NCBI GenBank assembly: GCA_045532935.1
Contig: JAZSGW010000013.1
Coordinates: forward strand, 92,380 to 156,379
Length of the DNA: 64,000 bases
Source of the DNA: Acutalibacteraceae bacterium
Lineage (GTDB): Bacteria; Bacillota; Clostridia; Oscillospirales; Acutalibacteraceae
Direction of reading: 5' to 3'
A program made the position numbers and the translations under genes. Under the pieces are notes generated by a model. It had not been told where the DNA came from, searched no databases, and worked only from the letters and a program-made list of their open reading frames with translations. Positions 44,256-57,736 of this stretch are shown here, in pieces; position 1 is the first letter of the stretch; each line of letters begins with the position of its first letter.

Positions 44256-44463
44256 CTATCGTTAACCCTATGAAGCTGTCGGAATCAAACAGAAACCGAT
44301 AGTGGAGGAGGCTCTGGAGAAGTCCATTAAGTTGGGTGCCCAAGGTGCAAGGTGAAACATTTCACTGAATCTCTCAGGCAAAAGGACAGAGCAGAAGATA
44401 TAACTGTATTTTCTAGCTTTTCTTTGTTTTCAGACCGCCTCTTTTCAGGGGCGGATTTTTTTG
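44256..44463 (+). promoter_or_regulatory. Glycine riboswitch (single aptamer plus 5' accessory stem-loop) with terminator expression platform
   Basis: The aptamer at 44312-44391 is CUCUGGAGAAG...GCCCAAGGUGCAAGG...AAUCUCUCAGGCAAAAGGACAGAG. It matches the glycine aptamer consensus (CUCUGGAGAG / GCCGAAGGAGCAA / CUCAGGCAAAAGGAC). An upstream stem-loop CUAUCG...CGAUAG lies at 44256-44305. A terminator CCGCCUC/GGGGCGG plus U7 lies at 44434-44463. Confidence 0.85.
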
Positions 44464-44480
44464 TTTTGGAGGAATTTTCA

Positions 44481-45875
44481 ATGGACGCTATTTTAAAAAT
44501 AGTACAAACAATCAATCTGTACCTTTCCGACTATATTCTTATTGCTTTGCTTATCGGAATAGGCTTATTTTACACTATCCGCACTCGTTTTGTGCAGGTT
44601 CGCTGCTTCAGGGAAGCTATGAAAAAAGCTTTTGCAGGGATTTCTCTTCGTGGCGGTAAACAAGAAGGCGGTCTCAGCTCCTTTCAGGCTCTCGCAACTG
44701 CTATTGCTGCTCAGGTTGGTACCGGTAATATAGTAGGTGCTTGCGGTGCAATTCTTATCGGTGGTCCCGGTGCAATATTCTGGATGTGGGTTATTGCTTT
44801 CTTCGGTATGGCTACAATCTATGCGGAAGCAGTACTTGCACAGGAGACGAGAATTGTAAATGAAGACGGTTCCGTTGACGGTGGCCCTGTTTATTATATA
44901 AGAAAGGCATTTAAAGGCGGTTTCGGTAAATTTCTTGCAGCATTCTTTGCGATTGCCTCAATTCTTGCATTAGGATTTATGGGTAGCATGGTTCAATCGA
45001 ACTCAATAGCAGAAACCTGCAGCAAAGCTTTTGGTGTTCCCGGTTGGGTTATCGGACTTGTTGTAGCCGCTGTTGCCGGATTTATATTTATCGGTGGAGC
45101 AACCAGAATTGCCTCTGTCACGGAAAAAATAGTACCTATTATGGCTTTCCTTTATATTGGTGGGGGCATCATACTTCTTGTGCTCAACATAAAGAATGTT
45201 CCTGAAGCTTTTTCTATGATATTCAAATATGCTTTTATGCCTCAAGCTCTGATTGGTGGTGGTGCAGGTGCAGCACTTAAGCAGGCAATCAGCCAGGGTG
45301 CAAAAAGAGGTCTTTTCTCCAATGAAGCAGGTATGGGTTCAACTCCTCACGCACACGCTCTTGCAAAGGTAGAAAAACCTCATGATCAAGGTGTTCTTGC
45401 AATGGCTGGTGTCTTTATCGATACATTTGTTGTGCTTACAATGACTGCTCTTGTTGTTATTTCAACTCTTTACACCAAAGGTGGTGTTCTCGAATCAGGT
45501 TCAGCCGAAGGTGTTACAAAAGCTAATATGGCACAGCTTGCGTTTGGCGGTATTTTCGGAGAGACCGGTGGTAATATTTTTGTTGCAATTTGTCTTCTTT
45601 TCTTCGCATTCTCAACAATTATCGGTTGGAATCTTTTTGGTAAGGTGAATATGGTTTATCTTTTCGGTAAAAAATCCGAGAAAATTTATGCCTTTATAGC
45701 TGTAGCGTTCACTTTCCTTGGATCTTGTCTTTCAAATGATCTTGTCTGGGAGCTTACCGATATGTTTAATCAGCTTATGGTAATTCCTAATGTGCTTGCT
45801 CTTGCGGTTCTTTCCGGAATAGTAGCAAAAAGCGCAAATAAGTCAATGAAAAACAAGTCAACCAAAACTAAATAA
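44481..45875 (+). CDS. agcS: Sodium:alanine (glycine) symporter family protein
   Basis: AGCS signatures GTGNIVG and FSNEAGMGSTPHAHA. The start at 44481 has a GGAGG SD, and the ORF-track start at 44352 runs through the riboswitch. Confidence 0.9.
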   Translation: MDAILKIVQTINLYLSDYILIALLIGIGLFYTIRTRFVQVRCFREAMKKAFAGISLRGGKQEGGLSSFQALATAIAAQVGTGNIVGACGAILIGGPGAIFWMWVIAFFGMATIYAEAVLAQETRIVNEDGSVDGGPVYYIRKAFKGGFGKFLAAFFAIASILALGFMGSMVQSNSIAETCSKAFGVPGWVIGLVVAAVAGFIFIGGATRIASVTEKIVPIMAFLYIGGGIILLVLNIKNVPEAFSMIFKYAFMPQALIGGGAGAALKQAISQGAKRGLFSNEAGMGSTPHAHALAKVEKPHDQGVLAMAGVFIDTFVVLTMTALVVISTLYTKGGVLESGSAEGVTKANMAQLAFGGIFGETGGNIFVAICLLFFAFSTIIGWNLFGKVNMVYLFGKKSEKIYAFIAVAFTFLGSCLSNDLVWELTDMFNQLMVIPNVLALAVLSGIVAKSANKSMKNKSTKTK

Positions 45876-46756: not shown

Positions 46757-46784
46757 TTGACATTTATTGTCTTTGTGTTATAAT
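46757..46784 (+). promoter_or_regulatory. Sigma-A promoter for tRNA-Pro
   Basis: TTGACA, 16-nt spacer, TGtTATAAT (extended -10), about 18 nt before the tRNA 5' end. Confidence 0.75.
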
Positions 46785-46802: not shown

Positions 46803-46879
46803 CCGGGTGTGGCGCAGCTTGGTAGCGCGCTTGACTGGGGGTCAAGAGGCCGCAGGTTCAAGTCCTGTCACTCGGACCA
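46803..46879 (+). tRNA. tRNA-Pro (anticodon GGG), CCA encoded
   Basis: I folded the cloverleaf by hand. Acceptor CCGGGTG/CACTCGG (one G.U), D arm GCGC-AGCTTGGTA-GCGC, anticodon arm CTTGA-CTGGGGG-TCAAG (U33, GGG, G37), T arm GCAGG-TTCAAGT-CCTGT, and 3' ACCA. Confidence 0.9.
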
Positions 46880-46931: not shown

Positions 46932-46988
46932 AAATGCGTCATATTATCTCACTTTATCTTTTTCGACTGCATACGGAGGAGTTGCATT

Positions 46989-48296
46989 ATGACCACTGCT
47001 GACTGGGTAAAAAAATTTGGAAATAATTTTTTGATTACCCTAACGAATGAAGAGCGAAGATATTTAGGTCTCTCTGACCTGTCTCATGATTGGGATAGTT
47101 TAGTATTTTACAGCAAAACAAATCTGTGGTATACAAGAGTGACCGCTTTTTTTGAAGGTAACACTATTGTTAAAGTGATAAGTGAAACCAAGCGAGTTCT
47201 GGATAATGGTACTGCAAATTATGAAGGTTACGTAGAATACGATACAAAACTGGACACTAACGAGAGAAAACAACTACTCCCGCTTACCACCCGTGGAAAG
47301 CTTAAGCCTCTGTCCGTCTCCAACATCAATGCCGTTACACCTTTTGGTTGCAGATTTTCTATTGGCTACGAATCCGGAAAAGATACAAGCTTGCGGCTAA
47401 ACAATCCTCGCGTCAATAAAGAGTTCCCCATCGGTGAATGGGACGCAATAGCAGCAATCAAATCCGAACACGATTTCCATGCTTTTATGAACACCTACAT
47501 TTCCACCTGCCGGAACGATTATTTTGACAAGCTCCAAGTCTTCAAAGATGCTAAGAAGGTTACCGTTAAATATAAGCCCGGCGATATTTTTCGCATGGAA
47601 TTTGATCGGACACGTTACTGTTATGGAATCATCACCGGAATAATCGAAAAACTGAAAACTATGCCGGAGCTACCTGAAAAACACAGCTTGCGGCAGTTGA
47701 TGATGGTCCCCATTATGGTGCGCCCTTATCAGCTGATCACACACGATCCTGACCTAAAGTCAGATGAACTGTCCCATGTTCCTCTGGGGCGTGTGCAAAT
47801 CGTAGGTGATAACGACATCATCTGGGGGACGCACACAATCGTTGATCACAAGCCTCTCGTCCCTGATGATTTAGAGTTTAATTTTGTCTGCACCAAAATC
47901 GTATCCCACAATCAGCATAACACGCTGTTTACGCAAGATATGTTTATGCACGATGGTCTGATTCCACAGCAGGAGTACATGCTCTACATTGAGTGGGGCT
48001 TCACGCGGACAAGTCTGCGCTATGAGCAATTGTCGGACAAATTAAAAACTTTTTTAGCTGACTATAGTTCTCCTCATGGTGGAGTTTCTATGGCTATCGA
48101 TCCGCGCTCAGCTGTTCCTGACGAAAAATATCGTCAACATTATTCCTATCAGAAGAATCTTTTGAATCCCGAAAACCACGAGATACTGAGCGAAATATTT
48201 ACTTGTCTGGGTCTGAATGCAGATACCACATTCGATCAGTTCGCAGAGAAGTTTTGCGGCCTAACCCGTAAGAAGATCATTTCCTGTATGAAATAA
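46989..48296 (+). CDS. Hypothetical protein, compositionally atypical (possibly an immunity-protein-like fold)
   Basis: 435 aa starting at MTTADW with a GGAGGA SD. The ORF-track extension back to 46767 reads through the tRNA. I recognise no catalytic motif. KPGDIFRMEFDRTRYCYGII vaguely resembles polymorphic-toxin immunity families. Confidence 0.6.
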   Translation: MTTADWVKKFGNNFLITLTNEERRYLGLSDLSHDWDSLVFYSKTNLWYTRVTAFFEGNTIVKVISETKRVLDNGTANYEGYVEYDTKLDTNERKQLLPLTTRGKLKPLSVSNINAVTPFGCRFSIGYESGKDTSLRLNNPRVNKEFPIGEWDAIAAIKSEHDFHAFMNTYISTCRNDYFDKLQVFKDAKKVTVKYKPGDIFRMEFDRTRYCYGIITGIIEKLKTMPELPEKHSLRQLMMVPIMVRPYQLITHDPDLKSDELSHVPLGRVQIVGDNDIIWGTHTIVDHKPLVPDDLEFNFVCTKIVSHNQHNTLFTQDMFMHDGLIPQQEYMLYIEWGFTRTSLRYEQLSDKLKTFLADYSSPHGGVSMAIDPRSAVPDEKYRQHYSYQKNLLNPENHEILSEIFTCLGLNADTTFDQFAEKFCGLTRKKIISCMK

Positions 48297-49209: not shown

Positions 49210-49245
49210 TGAAAGGTTGTCAGTTACGGCAACCTTTCATTTTTC
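49210..49245 (+). terminator. Intrinsic terminator after the SDR gene, overlapping the 3' end of the convergent methyltransferase ORF
   Basis: 10-bp perfect stem TGAAAGGTTG/CAACCTTTCA followed by TTTTT. Confidence 0.75.
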
Positions 49246-50056
49246 TGAACACATCAAGCATATGAATAGACATACCTACACAATCCTCACGTTCGCAAAG
49301 AACGGAAAGAAATTTCATATACTCCTCAAATTCACGGTCACTTAAATCATTGAATTTGTCATCAAATATGTAAGACAGCATATCGACACCGACAAAGTGA
49401 AGTCTTGTAACATTGTGACTTTCCATAAGCCTATCAATATCAGCTTTACGGTACAGCTCAAATATTTCCTCGGGTGCAGAAACTGTATGATAATCTTCTT
49501 TGATAAGACCTTTTTCTAAATAATCAAGTACGATGTTTTTATAAAAAAACTTATAAATTGAGGTATCATTATTACAGTAAGAAGCGTAAATTACACCATC
49601 TGTTTTTGCTAATCTTATTGCTTCGTCAAGAGCCTTATGCTTATCTTCATCAGTAAAAAGATGATACATGGGACCTAACAGTAATACAATGTCATAAGTA
49701 TCACTTTCAAATTCAGACATATCGCAGGCATTGCCTTCATAAATCTTGATATTGTGATTGGGTTTGACTTTTTTCTCCATAATTTCAATGTTATGGGGAA
49801 CAAGCTCAACCGCAGTAACATCATAACCCATTTCAGCAAGTGCGAGGGAATATCTGCCCGTTCCTGCACCTATTTCAATTATTTTTGCACCGGGTGTGAG
49901 ATACTTTTCAACATATTTCATTGTTGTAAGATACTCCGGCATTCGGCTTTTACGCATCAGTCTGCCTTCTTCATCGTAGTTATTGTAAAAATCAATAACA
50001 CTGTTTCCTGTTGTTACAGGTTCGGATTTCTTTTTGAACAGTTCTGAAAGTTTCAT
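49220..50056 (-). CDS. Class I SAM-dependent methyltransferase
   Basis: 278 aa. Motif I IIEIGAGTGRYS, an acidic post-I residue (VELV), and the motif II region DIVLLLGP. The AGGAGG SD directly follows a terminator-like hairpin. Confidence 0.8.
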   Translation of the reverse strand: MKLSELFKKKSEPVTTGNSVIDFYNNYDEEGRLMRKSRMPEYLTTMKYVEKYLTPGAKIIEIGAGTGRYSLALAEMGYDVTAVELVPHNIEIMEKKVKPNHNIKIYEGNACDMSEFESDTYDIVLLLGPMYHLFTDEDKHKALDEAIRLAKTDGVIYASYCNNDTSIYKFFYKNIVLDYLEKGLIKEDYHTVSAPEEIFELYRKADIDRLMESHNVTRLHFVGVDMLSYIFDDKFNDLSDREFEEYMKFLSVLCEREDCVGMSIHMLDVFRKMKGCRN

Positions 50057-50067
50057 AAAAACTCCTC

Positions 50068-50116
50068 CTAAATAAAAAATTAACGGTGTAAGCTTATCTG
50101 AAAAGCCTACACCGTT
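50068..50116 (-). terminator. Strong hairpin plus U-tract between the glycosylase gene and the methyltransferase SD (attenuator 2 / operon terminator)
   Basis: In the minus-strand RNA: a 15-bp stem UAACGGUGUAGGCUU/AAGCUUACACCGUUA (one G.U), loop UUCAGAU, then A-UUUUUU-A-UUU running straight into AGGAGG. Confidence 0.75.
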
Positions 50117-50141
50117 ATAATCATATCGTTATAAAAATACA

Positions 50142-50243
50142 GTTACGTATCCGAAAATGAATATATAGGTATAGACCTGCAGCCATAATATGGTGCAAGC
50201 CAAAGCATATACATTTCTGTTTTGTTTGAAAGATATGCGTTCA
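50142..50243 (-). promoter_or_regulatory. Candidate leader ORF 2 (33 codons, TTG start; or 23 codons from the internal ATG at 50213)
   Basis: GAGAGG SD (50258-50253) 9 nt before the TTG. Peptide MNAYLSNKTEMYMLWLAPYYGCRSIPIYSFSDT. Its codons 15-18 contain GGCUUGCACC (50200-50191), which is complementary to the terminator 5' arm. Confidence 0.4.
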
Positions 50244-50286
50244 AATCAGTTTACCTCTCTACTGTACTTTTCGTAAATATATCACA

Positions 50287-50778
50287 TCATTGTTCTGTTG
50301 TCAAGTTTTTAATTAATCCCCACGCCACAACAAGCCTATCAACACTCCAACCCGCATTGGCAGGTGAGGTTGAGGGCAGACAAACAGCCTCTCTGCCGAT
50401 TTTGTCACGGATATACTTGTTGTAATACTTTTCGGCGGTTTTGCCGTTGACGAAAATCTGCCTGATGTCAGCGTTTTCAAGTATCTCTGTAAGGTCATTT
50501 GCGACCACATTTTTTATTGAACTGTCAGAGCTGCCCGTTATATCACAAGAGGCGATTACGTCCCACAATGCAATATGATTTGCGTGCAGAAAGTCACTTT
50601 TCTCCTCAATGGTTACAGGTGTATCAGCACCCATAACGGCAGAAACAACTTTCCAGAATCTGTTCTGTGGATGGCCGTAGAAAAACATCTGCTCACGGGA
50701 TTTCACCGACGGAAAACTACCAAGAATAAGTACTTTTGAGTTTTTGTCATATAGGGGCGGGATAGGGTGTTTAGGCAT
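50287..50778 (-). CDS. UDG-superfamily DNA-deoxyinosine (hypoxanthine) glycosylase-like protein
   Basis: 163 aa. LILGSFPSVKSREQMFFYGHPQNRFW and LPSTSPAN match the family-6 HDG-type pattern as I remember it. Confidence 0.7.
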   Translation of the reverse strand: MPKHPIPPLYDKNSKVLILGSFPSVKSREQMFFYGHPQNRFWKVVSAVMGADTPVTIEEKSDFLHANHIALWDVIASCDITGSSDSSIKNVVANDLTEILENADIRQIFVNGKTAEKYYNKYIRDKIGREAVCLPSTSPANAGWSVDRLVVAWGLIKNLTTEQ

Positions 50779-50779
50779 A

Positions 50780-51271
50780 TTATATACTCCTCATAAATTC
50801 TTTAACCTGCCGTTTTGTTTTTAAAACAACAGTTTTATCTTGGTACTTATCTGCAATTTCAGCATAATAGTCCCGTCTTTCCTTGTTTCTGCAACCGAAA
50901 AGAGTAAACTTTACAAACCACCAATTCATATCGTTGGCGTAACCGTCTTGTCTGCGGCTCTTTGTTCGTTTAACCGCACGAAAAAAGCAGGTCATTCTCG
51001 GAAGCTGAAGCAAGATTATTTTATCTGCCTTTTGCAGTCGCTCATCTATCATCAGGTATGTATAGTAGCCGTCAATAATCCAATCTTCTTGCGCCATAAA
51101 GTCTGCAACTATGGGCAGTACGACAGAATCGTCAATCGGCTTCCATTCCTTGTCCCACTTGACATCATCAAGGTGAAGGACGGGGATATTTTTCTTTTCA
51201 GCTATGTAGTCAGACAGATATGTTTTACCGCTTCCGGCATAGCCTAAAACTGCGATTTTCATTTCCTTCAC
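50780..51271 (-). CDS. Adenylate-kinase-like P-loop NTPase ('topology modulation protein' family)
   Basis: 163 aa. Walker A GYAGSGKT near the N-terminus. Same fold family as the 52944-53450 gene. Confidence 0.7.
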   Translation of the reverse strand: MKEMKIAVLGYAGSGKTYLSDYIAEKKNIPVLHLDDVKWDKEWKPIDDSVVLPIVADFMAQEDWIIDGYYTYLMIDERLQKADKIILLQLPRMTCFFRAVKRTKSRRQDGYANDMNWWFVKFTLFGCRNKERRDYYAEIADKYQDKTVVLKTKRQVKEFMRSI

Positions 51272-51291
51272 CTCTTTCAGATATCAGTTTA

Positions 51292-51843
51292 TTATAAATA
51301 CTTCTGCATATAAAACAAATCCTGATAAGTTTCGTCTTTCAACTTGCATATCTTTGGCTTAACTGCAACAGTTTTAAAACCGAATTTCTCATACAGAGCC
51401 TTCCCTCTCTCATTGCCTTCAAGATATTCGAGTTCAAGGATTTTAGTGCCTTTGTGTTCTTTAGCAATTTTAATAAGCTCACTGAACATTGCAGAACCGA
51501 TACCTATGTTCCAATAATCTTTCAGAATAGCAATTCCGATACCTGCTCTGTGAGAAGTTTTCATATCATTAAAAAATGTAATATCGCAGGACCCGACAGC
51601 TTTACCGTCAATATAACAGGCTATTATAAGATTGTGTTCTGATTCTCGGTTACCGGAAATCCATTTTTTCTCGTCTTCAACGGTAAAACCTTCCCAATCC
51701 TCAGTGCAACGTGAAAGAAACGCTGTTTCTCCACTAGCGGTTATGATGTTGTTAAGAAACATTTCTGCATCTTCGATTTCGGGTGTTTTTAATATTGCGT
51801 GTATGCCGTTTTTCAGTGTAATTTCCTTTGCTTTAAATATCAT
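51292..51843 (-). CDS. GNAT-family N-acetyltransferase
   Basis: 183 aa. Acetyl-CoA motif WNIGIGSAMFSELIKIAK and C-terminal YEKFGF. Confidence 0.8.
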   Translation of the reverse strand: MIFKAKEITLKNGIHAILKTPEIEDAEMFLNNIITASGETAFLSRCTEDWEGFTVEDEKKWISGNRESEHNLIIACYIDGKAVGSCDITFFNDMKTSHRAGIGIAILKDYWNIGIGSAMFSELIKIAKEHKGTKILELEYLEGNERGKALYEKFGFKTVAVKPKICKLKDETYQDLFYMQKYL

Positions 51844-51844
51844 A

Positions 51845-52951
51845 TCATTTCACCTCGATAGCAATAAAAGGAACTGTCATTTCTTCTTTAACAAGGCCTG
51901 CATGACCTCCGATAGGTTCAAAATCCGAATGCTCATAATTTAGTATCACATTACTTGTAGCAACAGCTAAATAGTCGCCTATAAAATCTTTAGTTTTTGG
52001 GTGTGCAGTGCCATAACCCAAAAGATTTTCTGCAAAAACCTCTTCTTTTGTCATAAGTCTGAATGAATCACCGAACACCTTGTTGAATTCCTCTTTAAAT
52101 GCTTCGGCTTTTCCGTCTTTAATGAAAAGGCTCAAGGCTCTCGGTTCAACAGAAGGTGGCATTTTAAGCATATCCTTAAGCACGGGATAATCCTCTAAAT
52201 ATTCATTTACACAATCAATTTGTCCATGGTCAGCTGTAATAATGATACGAGAGTTTTTCAGCTTTTTACATAGCTTTTCAACCTCTCTGTTTATCATCTC
52301 AACTTCGTTCTTTGCTTCTACACTGTGTACGCCGTGTATGTGCATTATATTATCGGGTTGATGCCAATAGGTGTATATGTACTTCTGCTTTCTTCTTTTT
52401 GACAGTCTGCAAACTGTTTTACAAATGTGATGAACACTTTTTGAACGGTATTTTGAAAAAGCAGATACACAATAAGCTGTCTTTCTGCCCCTGACCTCTT
52501 CTATTCTTTGGAAAATCTTTTTATACGGTATGTATTTAAACGGAACATTATATCCTGCAGCAGGCTCACCGTTTCGTTGCAAAGCATTTTTAAAGACAGT
52601 GACATTTTCTCCTATTTCATCAAAATATAAGTCCCAACCAATCCAGCCGGTTTCAATAGGAGAATAACCGCTTTCGATTGCAGTCAGGGCAGCAACAGTC
52701 GTTGACGGATATACGGATGATATGTCTGTTAAATGATGCTGTCTGAGGAAATCAGTTTCAGAAAGATGTTCCTTGATCACAGAAGCACCCATACCGTCAA
52801 AGAGCATCATTATTACGTTTTTATAGTTTTTATTTAATAGTTCATCAAACTCAGGTAAGCTCTTATGCTCGCAATCAGTAACACCGAAATACTTAAGCAC
52901 AGATGAAGCAAGAGACAATATGCTTCTGTCATAATCGGGATATTTAACCAT
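51845..52951 (-). CDS. Alkaline-phosphatase-superfamily protein (type I phosphodiesterase/nucleotide pyrophosphatase-like)
   Basis: Metal/nucleophile motifs LFDGMG, YPSTT and ITADHGQ. The start at 52951 (MVKYP) has AAGGAG 8 nt upstream and overlaps the preceding gene by 8 nt. Confidence 0.7.
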   Translation of the reverse strand: MVKYPDYDRSILSLASSVLKYFGVTDCEHKSLPEFDELLNKNYKNVIMMLFDGMGASVIKEHLSETDFLRQHHLTDISSVYPSTTVAALTAIESGYSPIETGWIGWDLYFDEIGENVTVFKNALQRNGEPAAGYNVPFKYIPYKKIFQRIEEVRGRKTAYCVSAFSKYRSKSVHHICKTVCRLSKRRKQKYIYTYWHQPDNIMHIHGVHSVEAKNEVEMINREVEKLCKKLKNSRIIITADHGQIDCVNEYLEDYPVLKDMLKMPPSVEPRALSLFIKDGKAEAFKEEFNKVFGDSFRLMTKEEVFAENLLGYGTAHPKTKDFIGDYLAVATSNVILNYEHSDFEPIGGHAGLVKEEMTVPFIAIEVK

Positions 52952-53450
52952 GAAGATTTCTCCTTGCATTTTCTATGTATTTATCTGCATCTTCTCTTGA
53001 TTTGAAAACTATCACTTGCTTTTCACTTTTGTATTTATCAATCAGTTCATAAATGTACGGCAATGTTTTTTCAGAAAATTCCTCGATAAACTTTCTGAAT
53101 TCGGGGTCTAATTCTGTCTCTATCCAGGGGAGATCATAACGACCTTTTCCGATTCGTTCAGTTGCACCCTGTAAACAGATTTCTGTAGGCAAATCAAAGA
53201 GGAAAACAGCATCACATTCCTTAAGTCGCATTTCTATTGTTCTTTTATAATTCCCATCAATAATCCATTTTGAAGTAGAAAAGATTTCTGTTATTCTTTC
53301 GTCAAATTTTTCTCTGGATATGTGAGTCTTATCGGGTTTATGCCATATTGCATCAAGATAATACAAAGGCAATCCGGTAAGTTTATTTAATTTTTCTGCA
53401 AATGTTGTTTTCCCTGAACCGGGACAACCAATTATAATGACTTTGTTCAT
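52944..53450 (-). CDS. Adenylate-kinase-like P-loop NTPase ('topology modulation protein' family)
   Basis: Walker A GCPGSGKTT. I prefer the start at 53450 (MNKVIIIG), which has AAAGG 7 nt upstream. The ORF-track start at 53465 has no SD. Confidence 0.7.
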   Translation of the reverse strand: MNKVIIIGCPGSGKTTFAEKLNKLTGLPLYYLDAIWHKPDKTHISREKFDERITEIFSTSKWIIDGNYKRTIEMRLKECDAVFLFDLPTEICLQGATERIGKGRYDLPWIETELDPEFRKFIEEFSEKTLPYIYELIDKYKSEKQVIVFKSREDADKYIENARRNLHG

Positions 53451-53483
53451 TTTACTGCCTTTCATATTGATAAGAAAATTTTG

Positions 53484-54128
53484 TTATTTTTCAGTGCTTT
53501 TGAGTATCATAAGCTGACTGGGCGGATAAGATAGCCACGTTATAAGATAAAGAACTCCAGCAATTTCTTCGGTGATAAAAGACATATGTCTCAGACCGAC
53601 ACAAATATCTCCGATAACAAATACTATAAAGCCAATCATCAGAATAAGATGTTTACGTGAAGGCTTTTGTATCTGCAGCTCAACTGCGTGTGCAATATTA
53701 ATGCCTATACACACTGCATAGGCAGCCGGAAGAATAATATTACCCTGAAAGCCAAGAATGGTAGTAATAAGACTCGCAGCAACGGCAGGTATTATTCTTT
53801 TAAGAAGCTCGGTGGAAATCTTTTTGTCACTAATATGTGCCAGATAAACAGTATAACATAATTGCACAACTATAAATACAGCGACACCGTATAGATATTT
53901 GTTAAGAAGGACGAGGAAAATGTCAGCAAGTAAAGTAAACATAAGACCGATACTGACAAACCGACTTTCTTTTTTATTAAAAACTGTAACGCCCGATAGC
54001 GTTACAAGTGCGCTTGCGGCGAATTTTAGAGGTCTTGAATCCCAAAGCGAAAAAATATCGCAGGTAAGATAGATGAGCATGAAAATACCGATTAATCCAT
54101 ACACAATATATTTAAAAGATTTTTTCAT
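53484..54128 (-). CDS. YhhN-family membrane protein (second paralogue in the window)
   Basis: 214 aa, about 7 TM. The C-terminal FIVFVIGDICVG motif is YhhN-like. GGAGG SD. Confidence 0.6.
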   Translation of the reverse strand: MKKSFKYIVYGLIGIFMLIYLTCDIFSLWDSRPLKFAASALVTLSGVTVFNKKESRFVSIGLMFTLLADIFLVLLNKYLYGVAVFIVVQLCYTVYLAHISDKKISTELLKRIIPAVAASLITTILGFQGNIILPAAYAVCIGINIAHAVELQIQKPSRKHLILMIGFIVFVIGDICVGLRHMSFITEEIAGVLYLITWLSYPPSQLMILKSTEK

Positions 54129-54164
54129 TTTAATCCTCCAGATTTTTATTGTGATAATCCTTTG

Positions 54165-54203
54165 AAAAAAGAAACGCGTCTCTGACCATGAAATCAGAAA
54201 CGC
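54165..54203 (-). terminator. Leader terminator (attenuator 1) upstream of the yhhN-led operon
   Basis: In the minus-strand RNA: a 10-bp stem GCGUUUCUGA/UCAGAGACGC (one G.U that would be an A-C mismatch in a plus-strand RNA), an 8-nt loop, then GUUUCUUUUUU. It lies about 25 nt before the GGAGG SD. Confidence 0.7.
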
Positions 54204-54225
54204 ATAAATCCGAATTAAAGAAGTA

Positions 54226-54282
54226 TCATTTGCAAACGGACAAAACAGTATCTGATTTCACAAAGCTGCTTTTCATCATCAT
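54226..54282 (-). promoter_or_regulatory. Candidate leader peptide ORF 1 (18 codons: MMMKSSFVKSDTVLSVCK)
   Basis: AGGTGG SD (54293-54288) 5 nt before a triple ATG. The ORF contains the antiterminator strand UGAAAUCAGA (54260-54251). Confidence 0.5.
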
Positions 54283-54313
54283 TTTGTCCACCTGCCTTTC
54301 AGTGATTTTTATC

Positions 54314-54342
54314 ATTATATCAATACTTTACGGTATTGTCAA
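54314..54342 (-). promoter_or_regulatory. Consensus sigma-A promoter of the attenuated operon
   Basis: On the minus strand: TTGACA (54342-54337), 17-nt spacer, TATAAT (54319-54314). It abuts the pyk stop codon. Confidence 0.8.
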
Positions 54343-57541: not shown

Positions 57542-57736
57542 AAAAAAATAAATCCCGCCGTGCCGTTCGTGATGTGTATAACCTGCCTCAATAGCAGGGT
57601 GGTGATAGCGAGACGGGTTCGCGCTCCCTTCGTCCGCAGAAGCGGGAGGTCTGCAATCCGCCGTCAAAGCATCTCTCCGTTTTATAACGTGTTGGGTTAT
57701 AACGATCACAGTTGTCGCACACAGCAGGAGTTATAA
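57542..57736 (-). ncRNA. Candidate structured sRNA, rod-like (6S RNA-like?)
   Basis: A segment at about 56% GC (98 of 175 nt counted over 57554-57728) sits in an AT-rich spacer. The 5' and 3' ends pair over about 30 bp in four helices, with G.U pairs that work only on the minus strand. An apical CCGC-UUCU-GCGG hairpin sits exactly at the midpoint. A 3' U-tract follows. Confidence 0.5.

Follow-up and report, generated by a model that had tools for sequence, protein, structure and literature searches.

Two predicted leader-peptide attenuators and their mosaic of small enzyme genes in an Acutalibacteraceae genome

The stretch of DNA analyzed here (hereafter the window) comprises 64,000 nucleotides (nt) of the genome of an Acutalibacteraceae bacterium (assembly GCA_045532935.1, contig JAZSGW010000013.1, positions 92,380 to 156,379). 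It harbors a block of seven genes on the minus strand with two leader regions (54342-54129 and 50286-50057), each of which holds a short open reading frame (ORF) with a Shine-Dalgarno sequence, followed by a strong intrinsic terminator close to the next gene (Table 1). As judged from their conservation and from modeled folding, both leaders very probably represent functional ribosome-dependent transcription attenuators. The order and families of the seven genes, as listed by an earlier reading of the letters without database searches (the sequence-only reading), were recovered with Pfam and NCBIfam, with the start of the NPP-type phosphodiesterase placed at 52951 instead of 52969 because its homologues are 368 aa long. 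The first six genes (YhhN to UDG) are spaced by -8 to 20 nt, and the flanking genes are housekeeping ones, coding upstream for a pyruvate kinase and downstream for an SDR in convergent orientation. The leader-1 promoter lies directly after the pyruvate kinase stop codon and is kept in the leader-1 homologues, while that of leader 2 overlaps the 3' end of the UDG gene and is kept in all 57 aligned homologues. Since leader 2 has its own promoter, the methyltransferase forms a separate transcription unit, and on sequence grounds the locus is composed of a six-gene leader-1 operon (YhhN, P-loop, NPP, GNAT, P-loop, UDG) and a monocistronic leader-2 methyltransferase unit. Since the UDG gene has no terminator behind it, transcripts from upstream could also reach the second attenuator. 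The "doubly attenuated seven-gene unit" of the sequence-only reading is thus supported as to the two attenuators and not as to the single unit.

Table 1. Genes and leader elements of the locus, in the direction of transcription (window coordinates)
Feature	Position	Strand	Details
Leader-1 promoter, TTGACA-17-TATAAT, TG-extended	54314..54342	-	12/12 consensus (sigma-70)
Leader-1 ORF, 18 codons + stop, MMMKSSFVKSDTVLSVCK	54226..54282	-	Shine-Dalgarno AGGTGG at 54293-54288
Leader-1 hairpin A:A' (arm 54295-54281 with 54246-54232)	54232..54295	-	Predicted in minimum free energy (MFE) and centroid structures
Leader-1 antiterminator strand B, UGAAAUCAGA, codons 8-11	54251..54260	-	Partner 54198-54189 in terminator 5' arm and loop
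Leader-1 intrinsic terminator, 14-bp stem + U run	54164..54205	-	35 nt ahead of YhhN start codon
YhhN-family membrane protein, 214 aa	53484..54128	-	PF07947, E = 5e-15
P-loop NTPase 1, adenylate-kinase-like, 173 aa	52944..53465	-	NCBIfam PRK08118, 137 bits, below the 215-bit cut-off
NPP-type phosphodiesterase (alkaline-phosphatase superfamily), 368 aa	51845..52951	-	PF01663, E = 3e-18
GNAT acetyltransferase, 183 aa	51292..51843	-	PF00583, E = 6e-16
P-loop NTPase 2, 163 aa	50780..51271	-	NCBIfam PRK07261, 138 bits, below the 224-bit cut-off
UDG-superfamily protein, hypoxanthine-DNA-glycosylase type, 163 aa	50287..50778	-	TIGR04274, 144 bits, cut-off 80
Leader-2 promoter, TTGACA-17-TATATT, TG-extended	50276..50304	-	11/12 consensus (sigma-70)
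Leader-2 ORF, TTG start, 33 codons + stop, MNAYLSNKTEMYMLWLAPYYGCRSIPIYSFSDT	50143..50244	-	Shine-Dalgarno GAGAGG at 50259-50254
Leader-2 hairpin P1 (GGCUUGC with GCAGGUC), inside ORF	50174..50201	-	99% paired, 57 sequences
Leader-2 antiterminator	50106..50175	-	Left arm 50175-50157 (codons 24-30), right arm 50124-50106 overlapping terminator 5' arm
Leader-2 intrinsic terminator, 15-bp stem + U run	50071..50117	-	15 nt ahead of methyltransferase start
Class I SAM-dependent methyltransferase, 278 aa (homologues 270-273 aa)	49220..50056	-	Pfam Methyltransf_25, Methyltransf_11 and related models

The comparison set consisted of 79 loci fetched from NPP homologues (cited below by L numbers), nearly all of them in metagenome-assembled genomes (MAGs) of Acutalibacteraceae and other Oscillospirales from the guts of ruminants and other animals. 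Leader 1 was found at nine genomic loci, as a weaker copy in L069, and at 10 more from a metagenome pattern scan, which returned 12 loci including two chance matches (L091 and L093); 18 of the ~20 copies were aligned. The ORF is open in all 18 homologues, with 16-19 codons, 3-nt indels and the peptide consensus M[MTI]M[NK]...[VIL]LSVC[DKNR] up to the stop codon. The 15 bp of hairpin A:A' pair the Shine-Dalgarno sequence and AUG with codons 13-17 and enclose most of the ORF. Across the 18 sequences 98% of its cells are paired, against 38-48% in slid controls, and it shows no covariation because its sequence is invariant. Its predicted role is to sequester the Shine-Dalgarno sequence and the start codon and to act as an anti-antiterminator. 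The antiterminator, formed by strand B and its partner C, co-varies between two subtypes: the window, L002, L003 and L088 combine GAAAUCAG with CUGAUUUC, and the remaining sequences combine GGAGAGCC with GGCAUCUCC. These subtypes align in different registers, and the antiterminator and terminator were assessed via duplex energies and per-sequence folds. Cognate B:C duplexes have a mean energy of -12.7 kcal/mol, compared with -5.9 ± 2.6 for shuffled B and -3.9 for subtype-1 B with subtype-2 C. In 18/18 homologues a U run lies behind a terminator hairpin whose energy ranges from -13.5 to -20.8 kcal/mol, the hairpin of the window (54205-54174) having a folding z-score of -3.5.

Leader 2 is present in 59 loci, with 70-75% identity over 200-250 nt (BLASTN and nhmmer), once per cassette and directly 5' of the methyltransferase or, in six loci, of the NPP gene. 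In the alignment of 57 of these sequences (A2), the Shine-Dalgarno sequence is conserved as GAGGTA and the ORF is open in 57/57, with 33-38 codons, an ATG start in 53 and a TTG start in four (the window and three relatives), and the consensus peptide MNTYLfsKxDMdmnWLAQyDYqss(g/c)R(L/S)(I/M)PLYSFwdr before the stop codon. Indels are multiples of three and the position of the stop codon is fixed. The other two frames contain 1.8 and 2.5 stops per sequence and the ORF frame none, and shuffled ORFs stay open ~0.08 of the time. Pairing reaches 99% in helices P0 and P1 and in the terminator, with GC/GU pairs of P1 swapping between two sequence classes and three terminator pairs changed on both sides; the terminator hairpin of the window (50117-50081) has a folding z-score of -4.6. 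The antiterminator can coexist with neither P1 nor the terminator, has 90% of its cells paired versus 22-52% in slid controls, and harbors one compensatory change (U-A to C-G) that splits the sequences 34 to 22. P1 is predicted to act as a partial anti-antiterminator. In four loci (L041, at L041:2563-2778, L064, L013 and L079) leader 2 has one extra nt, so that the highly conserved "RLIPLYSF" nucleotides are read in another frame, and the ORF ends no more than 4 nt from the usual stop, which suggests that selection acts on the place of the stop and on the RNA pairing and not on the peptide. The leader-2 ORF is probably translated, with selection acting mainly on where the ribosome stands relative to the RNA helices and less on the peptide sequence.

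In most sequences RNAalifold also pairs the leader-2 Shine-Dalgarno sequence (GAGGUA) with a UACCUC in the left arm of the antiterminator (A2 columns 27-32 with 134-139, approximately 50259-50254 with 50171-50166 in the window). This anti-Shine-Dalgarno-like element could be an additional limit on re-initiation at the leader ORF. A likeness between the two leader families was observed at the N-terminus of their peptides, MMMKSSFVKSD in leader 1 and MMNTYLFVKSDM in leader 2 of the L069/L012/L017 type (window 54129-54308 compared with L069:8398-8595). At E ≤ 1, leader 1 goes undetected by an nhmmer profile built from leader 2; the two families may share ancestry, and we do not claim homology. 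Neither leader matches Rfam 15 at gathering thresholds, in line with the earlier statement that no described system fits, and at E ≤ 10 only chance matches appear, for example to a snoRNA model at 20 bits.

Both leaders therefore combine a conserved ORF with a Shine-Dalgarno sequence, a terminator stem of 13-15 bp with a U run, and an antiterminator that excludes the terminator. The conserved Shine-Dalgarno sequence, start, frame and stop, together with the co-varying antiterminator and terminator, support the leader-ORF attenuation that had been suspected at both sites. For the mode of action, transcripts truncated before the 3' arm of the terminator were folded with a ribosome footprint of 30 nt masked, because folding of the full-length RNA is uninformative for a kinetic switch. 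In leader 1 (L001 and L083), the hairpin sequestering the Shine-Dalgarno sequence forms without a ribosome and the antiterminator does not; a P-site at codons 1-4 or at the last codon yields the antiterminator, and one at codons 6-16 yields none. In leader 2, the antiterminator forms without a ribosome, is longer with a ribosome on codons 12-20, which opens P1, and is destroyed by a ribosome on codons 24-36. These windows indicate that both leaders would be ON when leader translation is impaired and terminated when it is smooth, a dependence of read-through on translation and stalling that is predicted from constraint folding. In leader 1, the hairpin would close over its own Shine-Dalgarno sequence and start codon, enclosing the ORF, and the terminator would then form; a ribosome held on codons 1-4 would keep the hairpin open, and the freed segment within the ORF could pair with the 5' arm of the terminator and permit read-through, as would a ribosome held at the stop codon. 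In leader 2, a ribosome reaching the end of the ORF would cover the left arm of the antiterminator (codons 24-30) and allow the terminator to form, and one that stalls near codons 12-20, or falls behind the RNA polymerase, would leave the antiterminator intact and lengthened.

What signal would hold the ribosome is a matter on which the codons themselves bear. One alternative, which we consider unlikely, is that the leaders are amino-acid-supply attenuators sensing methionyl-tRNA, the ribosome being held at hungry Met codons 2-3 in leader 1 and at Met11 in leader 2. An elongator AUG is indeed present at codon 2 or 3 (MMM, MTM, MIM or MM-) in 18/18 leader-1 ORFs, inside the predicted ON window (codons 1-4), and many have another at codon 8; Met11 is found in 50/50 leader-2 sequences and Met13 in 27/50, and much of the cargo consists of methyltransferases dependent on S-adenosylmethionine (SAM). 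However, the repeated AUGs are possibly alternative start codons, Met11 falls within the P0 helix (GAUAUG), where RNA structure can explain its conservation, and leader 2 lacks a run of regulatory codons such as those of the trp, his and leu leaders. Moreover, no gene for the biosynthesis or transport of methionine or SAM was found with Pfam and NCBIfam among the cargo of the window or its relatives, and the induction of SAM-consuming enzymes during methionine shortage would make little sense. Because this cargo test fails, the leaders are not regarded as amino-acid biosynthetic attenuators.

That the leaders are RNA switches which bind a ligand or a protein, with the short ORFs incidental, is improbable. 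Such switches would account for the nucleotide-level invariance, which includes third codon positions, for the highly conserved sequence of the leader-1 hairpin, and perhaps for the LytTR-domain regulator gene that ends several of the operons. They would leave unexplained the joint conservation of Shine-Dalgarno spacing, start (with ATG-to-TTG swaps), frame and stop position, as well as the 57 open leader-2 ORFs in view of the low probability given above that a shuffled ORF lacks a stop; nor do the leaders have the usual marks of an aptamer, namely a multi-helix junction or a conserved unpaired core, or a match in Rfam. Very improbable is a third alternative, according to which the product of leader 2 is a long regulatory arrest peptide, like TnaC or SpeFL, that senses a small molecule in the ribosomal exit tunnel. 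The peptide of ~35 residues (MNTYL..K.DM...WLAQ.DY....R.IPLYSF), shared by 57 loci, is long enough to span the tunnel; however, its conserved residues fall on P0, P1 and the antiterminator, with many codons showing no synonymous variation, the four +1-shifted variants retain the "RLIPLYSF" nucleotides in another frame with the stop in the same place, and a stall at the end of the ORF would cover the antiterminator arm and favor termination.

With respect to the proteins behind the leaders, the NPP-type enzyme harbors the invariant motifs DG, PSTT, ADHG and GxHAG, which hold the metal ligands and nucleophile, and the invariant residues D52, T84/T85, D241-H242 and H350, as in the NPP clade. Its best Foldseek matches are ENPP6, ENPP5, ENPP7, the Xanthomonas NPP and PhnA (E = 1e-13 to 1e-10), which are indistinguishable as top match given a mediocre structure model with a predicted local distance difference test (pLDDT) score of 64. 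It is only 13-17% identical to the solved members and has no PDB match by sequence, and an exact look-up of its sequence returned no record. No signal peptide is visible in the sequence, and the enzyme is probably cytoplasmic. An identity as PglZ of BREX systems was rejected (NF033449, 16 bits against a 250-bit cut-off; Pfam PglZ match to residues 187-253 only). A phosphocholine/plasmalogen theme, linking the YhhN lysoplasmalogenase to ENPP6-like and phosphoethanolamine-methyltransferase-like enzymes, was set aside because YhhN is unique to the window and the fold matches are unspecific.

The two P-loop NTPases share 26% identity, and the best NCBIfam model of both is a "DNA topology modulation protein" below its cut-off. 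Matches of the GNAT to named acetyltransferases are weak and below threshold, and PDB sequence searches with the P-loop, GNAT and UDG-like proteins returned nothing informative. Residues 6-153 of the UDG protein cover positions 2-150 of the 150 in TIGR04274 (DNA-deoxyinosine glycosylase), and it is predicted to be a hypoxanthine-DNA glycosylase of UDG family 6. The methyltransferase model (pLDDT 72) matches the folds of CmoM/SmtA and of small-molecule methyltransferases about equally, at 13-22% identity, which is not diagnostic; it is not recognizably an rRNA methyltransferase, as its RrnaAD and Erm matches comprise only the SAM-binding motif. The Foldseek comparison that the sequence-only reading had recommended thus identified fold families for the NPP and methyltransferase models and assigned no substrate to either.

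The gene neighborhoods of the related loci show how variably these genes are combined. A tblastn search with all window proteins found the seven-gene order in 0/79 related loci, so that of the neighborhood conservation sought by the sequence-only reading, the leaders are conserved across relatives and the gene set is not. The recurrent order is methyltransferase then NPP, usually followed by a RimJ/RimL-type GNAT (50 loci), often by a second class I methyltransferase (20 loci) and sometimes by a LytTR-domain protein, which points to leader 2 → methyltransferase → NPP → GNAT as the ancestral conserved cassette. When each NPP gene was walked upstream, leader 1 or 2 was present in 61/62 evaluable operons, that is, those whose start lies on the contig; the exception is L009. 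By this measure NPP is the gene family most tightly tied to both leaders. Among the closest relatives, L001 (92% NPP identity) harbors NPP, a GNAT-NUDIX fusion, NUDIX and UDG; L002 and L003 have GNAT, P-loop and NPP; L081 (93% methyltransferase identity) has methyltransferase, GNAT, two ORFs with no Pfam match, UDG, leader 2, methyltransferase, a 122-aa ORF and LytTR; and L080 has leader 2 and then the methyltransferase alone.

Individual pieces of the window's gene set do recur. The adjacency of P-loop and NPP is also seen in the closest relatives L002-L005 and L021, a close homologue of the GNAT is the first gene behind leader 1 in L083, a 78% homologue of P-loop NTPase 2 lies inside the leader-1 operon of L018, and the closest relatives L001 and L081 likewise have a UDG gene in an operon under leader control. 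YhhN is present in the window only and absent from the related leader-controlled operons examined. Elsewhere leader 1 precedes NPP alone, P-loop then NPP, GNAT then methyltransferase and further genes, or operons led by a methyltransferase. Another leader-1 operon has a HAD-like ORF, a P-loop protein, a further ORF and then an N-terminal ORF fragment that is APH/choline-kinase-like by eye only and was not scanned against Pfam, and that of L018 comprises 12 genes, namely GNATs, methyltransferases, P-loop kinases and a TIM-barrel protein. The cargo families of leader 1 in other loci are GNATs, methyltransferases, P-loop kinases, HAD, NUDIX and NPP.

From these neighborhoods, the seven genes of the window appear to be a local assortment, and not a system, drawn from the lineage's pool of leader-wired small enzyme genes, a pool that would include NPP, class I methyltransferases, GNATs, P-loop and APH kinases, NUDIX, HAD and UDG-like proteins. 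That they form one dedicated system, whether for the sanitation of nucleotides or DNA or for modification directed against phages, as the sequence-only reading had entertained, is hardly credible: tight packing on one strand, the nucleotide-related folds of NPP, NUDIX (in relatives), P-loop NTPases and the hypoxanthine-DNA-glycosylase-type protein, and the apparent reappearance in L081 of the sub-block P-loop 2, UDG, leader 2 and methyltransferase (with a 160-aa ORF lacking a Pfam match in the P-loop 2 position) are outweighed by orthologues that are scattered and reshuffled among the 79 loci, an outcome which that reading had itself named as refuting, even the 92%-identical L001 having a different gene set, by the confinement of YhhN to the window, by the absence of any PADLOC defense system (mad2 was matched only through a generic methyltransferase domain, and the other matches comprised the Walker A motif alone), and by the lack of phage or plasmid relatives, since the plasmid and phage collections gave no DNA match and, at the protein level, distant actinobacterial NPPs of 22-25% identity.

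Several further arrangements were observed in the related loci. In L056 (L056:8559-9141), leader 1, with its promoter, ORF and terminator, and a complete leader 2 lie within ~150 nt as tandem attenuators in front of a methyltransferase-NPP-GNAT-methyltransferase-LytTR operon. A TnpV transposon gene (PF14198, E = 7.5e-46; L039:8144-8521) is located directly 5' of the leader 2 → methyltransferase → NPP cassette in eight loci, and APH-family kinase genes (PF01636) are found near the cassette in four. Some genomes harbor two to three paralogous leader 2 → methyltransferase → NPP → GNAT cassettes, for example L033:416-2574 and L033:8924-11104, or the pairs L024/L037 and L057/L072, each from the same MAG, with methyltransferases ~75% or ~45% identical to that of the window. 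Finally, a gene coding for a LytTR-domain DNA-binding protein is the last of several leader-controlled operons (L011:3701-4225, L056:12629-13153 and L081:4547-5212), and this protein may add a second, transcriptional layer of control.

Many drug-modifying enzymes belong to the GNATs (including those of the RimL/MccE type), class I methyltransferases, P-loop/APH kinases, NUDIX, HAD and NPP phosphodiesterase families, and a resemblance of the cargo to such enzymes is plausible. The mosaic, multi-copy and sometimes transposon-adjacent organization also looks like that of accessory detoxification genes. RimL/MccE-type GNATs, for example, detoxify aminoacyl-nucleotide antibiotics (PMC8323819). In the proposed reading the signal would be a translation inhibitor or a shortage of aminoacyl-tRNA; the natural inducer could be a compound targeting the ribosome or an aminoacyl-tRNA synthetase, and the cargo enzymes would modify or detoxify the inducing compounds or their targets. 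We propose such a translation-targeting xenobiotic with a detoxifying cargo only tentatively, as a possibility somewhat short of probable; the combined reading, in which two ribosome-dependent attenuators respond to translation inhibitors and control detoxifying enzymes, appears moderately probable.

Several observations weigh against this combined reading. Constrained folding of the full-length RNA always lets the terminator win thermodynamically, an outcome to be expected of a kinetic switch, and the switch model would rest on co-transcriptional kinetics. The window's own leader 1 already shows the antiterminator in its MFE structure without a ribosome, which makes its basal state uncertain. 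The coding signature of leader 2 is weak, with summed entropies of 23.5, 15.1 and 21.7 at codon positions 1, 2 and 3, and many of its codons are invariant even at synonymous sites, constraint at the RNA level being dominant. Translation of the leaders, stalling and induction are themselves predictions, and the fold matches assign no substrates to the NPP and the methyltransferase. YhhN and the DNA glycosylase lie outside the theme of drug modification. In addition, no window protein reaches the cut-off of a curated NCBIfam resistance model (bits against cut-off: Erm 31/212, AAC(6') 22/400, Sat4 21/380, ArsN1 36/170), and since no recognized resistance gene is present, the leaders are not classed as antibiotic-resistance attenuators. 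A bolder extension would see in the two leader families a lineage-specific "translation-stress regulon", in which a ribosome-stalling sensor serves as a portable cassette in front of detoxifying or modifying enzymes that are freely exchanged, namely NPP, methyltransferase, RimL-like GNAT, NUDIX and kinases, and which would amount to an inducible mosaic resistome against natural products that target the ribosome or aminoacyl-tRNA synthetases (aminoacyl-nucleotide "Trojan horse" antibiotics, for instance), with NPP as a new class of antibiotic-inactivating enzyme; we regard it as rather doubtful.

Among known attenuators, the leaders come closest in architecture to those of vmlR and yxjB and would be members of the long-known class of leader-ORF attenuators. 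In Bacillus subtilis vmlR, an upstream ORF lies in an anti-antiterminator hairpin and lincomycin-stalled ribosomes let the antiterminator form (PMC9226507). In leader 1, too, an anti-antiterminator hairpin close to the 5' end encloses a short ORF, antiterminator and terminator lie downstream, and the opening of the hairpin base by a ribosome stalled early on the ORF, shown for vmlR, would apply to it as well. However, there is no sequence relation between the two, the vmlR ORF has 3 codons (MIN) as opposed to 16-19 in leader 1, the Shine-Dalgarno sequence of leader 1 is itself in the hairpin, and vmlR controls an ABCF resistance gene whereas leader 1 precedes NPP, GNAT, methyltransferase and kinase genes in changing combinations. 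In B. subtilis yxjB, a methyltransferase gene (RlmA-II) is induced by tylosin-dependent ribosome stalling on a leader peptide, so that where the ribosome stands on the leader determines read-through (PMC6851288). Leader 2 shares with it and with the erm/cat-type leaders a leader peptide and terminator in front of a SAM-dependent methyltransferase, but this methyltransferase is not recognizably of the rRNA type, the leader-2 ORF is much longer (33-38 codons), and in relatives the methyltransferase is co-transcribed with NPP and GNAT. The trp, his and leu attenuators resemble leader 2 in their alternative helices 1:2, 2:3 and 3:4 and in an ORF stop just beyond segment 2. They differ from it in having a regulatory codon run and biosynthetic genes; moreover, the 1:2 helix of leader 2 overlaps the antiterminator by a few bases, and an untranslated leader is predicted to read through and not to super-attenuate. 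As for the cargo, the window NPP has the fold, metal-ligand and Thr-nucleophile motifs of the NPP/ENPP and PhnA clade but differs in its low identity and apparently cytoplasmic location.

Other features of the window include a glycine riboswitch aptamer (Rfam RF00504, 55.6 bits) at 44304-44399 (+), directly before a sodium:alanine symporter family ORF called at 44352-45875, whose true start is probably later, and a 6S RNA gene (Rfam RF00013, 54 bits) at 57548-57733 (-). Behind a tRNA-Pro(GGG) at 46803-46879 (+) comes an ORF at 46980-48296 (+) that encodes an Imm26 immunity-protein domain; the listed 509-aa ORF starting at 46767 overlaps this tRNA and is over-called.

No description of either leader family was found by searching the literature for attenuators and leader peptides. 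What appears to be new, from comparison of the sequences, are two lineage-specific leader families in Acutalibacteraceae and other Oscillospirales gut bacteria, their near-obligate tie to an uncharacterized NPP-type enzyme, and the reuse of leader 1 before many enzyme sets. The locus also illustrates that tight packing behind an attenuator does not here equate to a functional system, as the gene sets are reshuffled even among close relatives. If the attenuator reading is true, two well-populated families from uncultured gut Clostridia would join a class known mostly from Bacilli and Proteobacteria, and they would provide a regulatory handle on the many enzymes annotated merely as "alkaline phosphatase family protein", "class I SAM-dependent methyltransferase" or "GNAT". 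The cargo enzymes would be switched on when translation falters, and their function would thus be testable by inducer screens and minimum inhibitory concentration panels. The leaders and their cargo may then represent an inducible store of drug-modifying genes in the ruminant and human gut microbiota.

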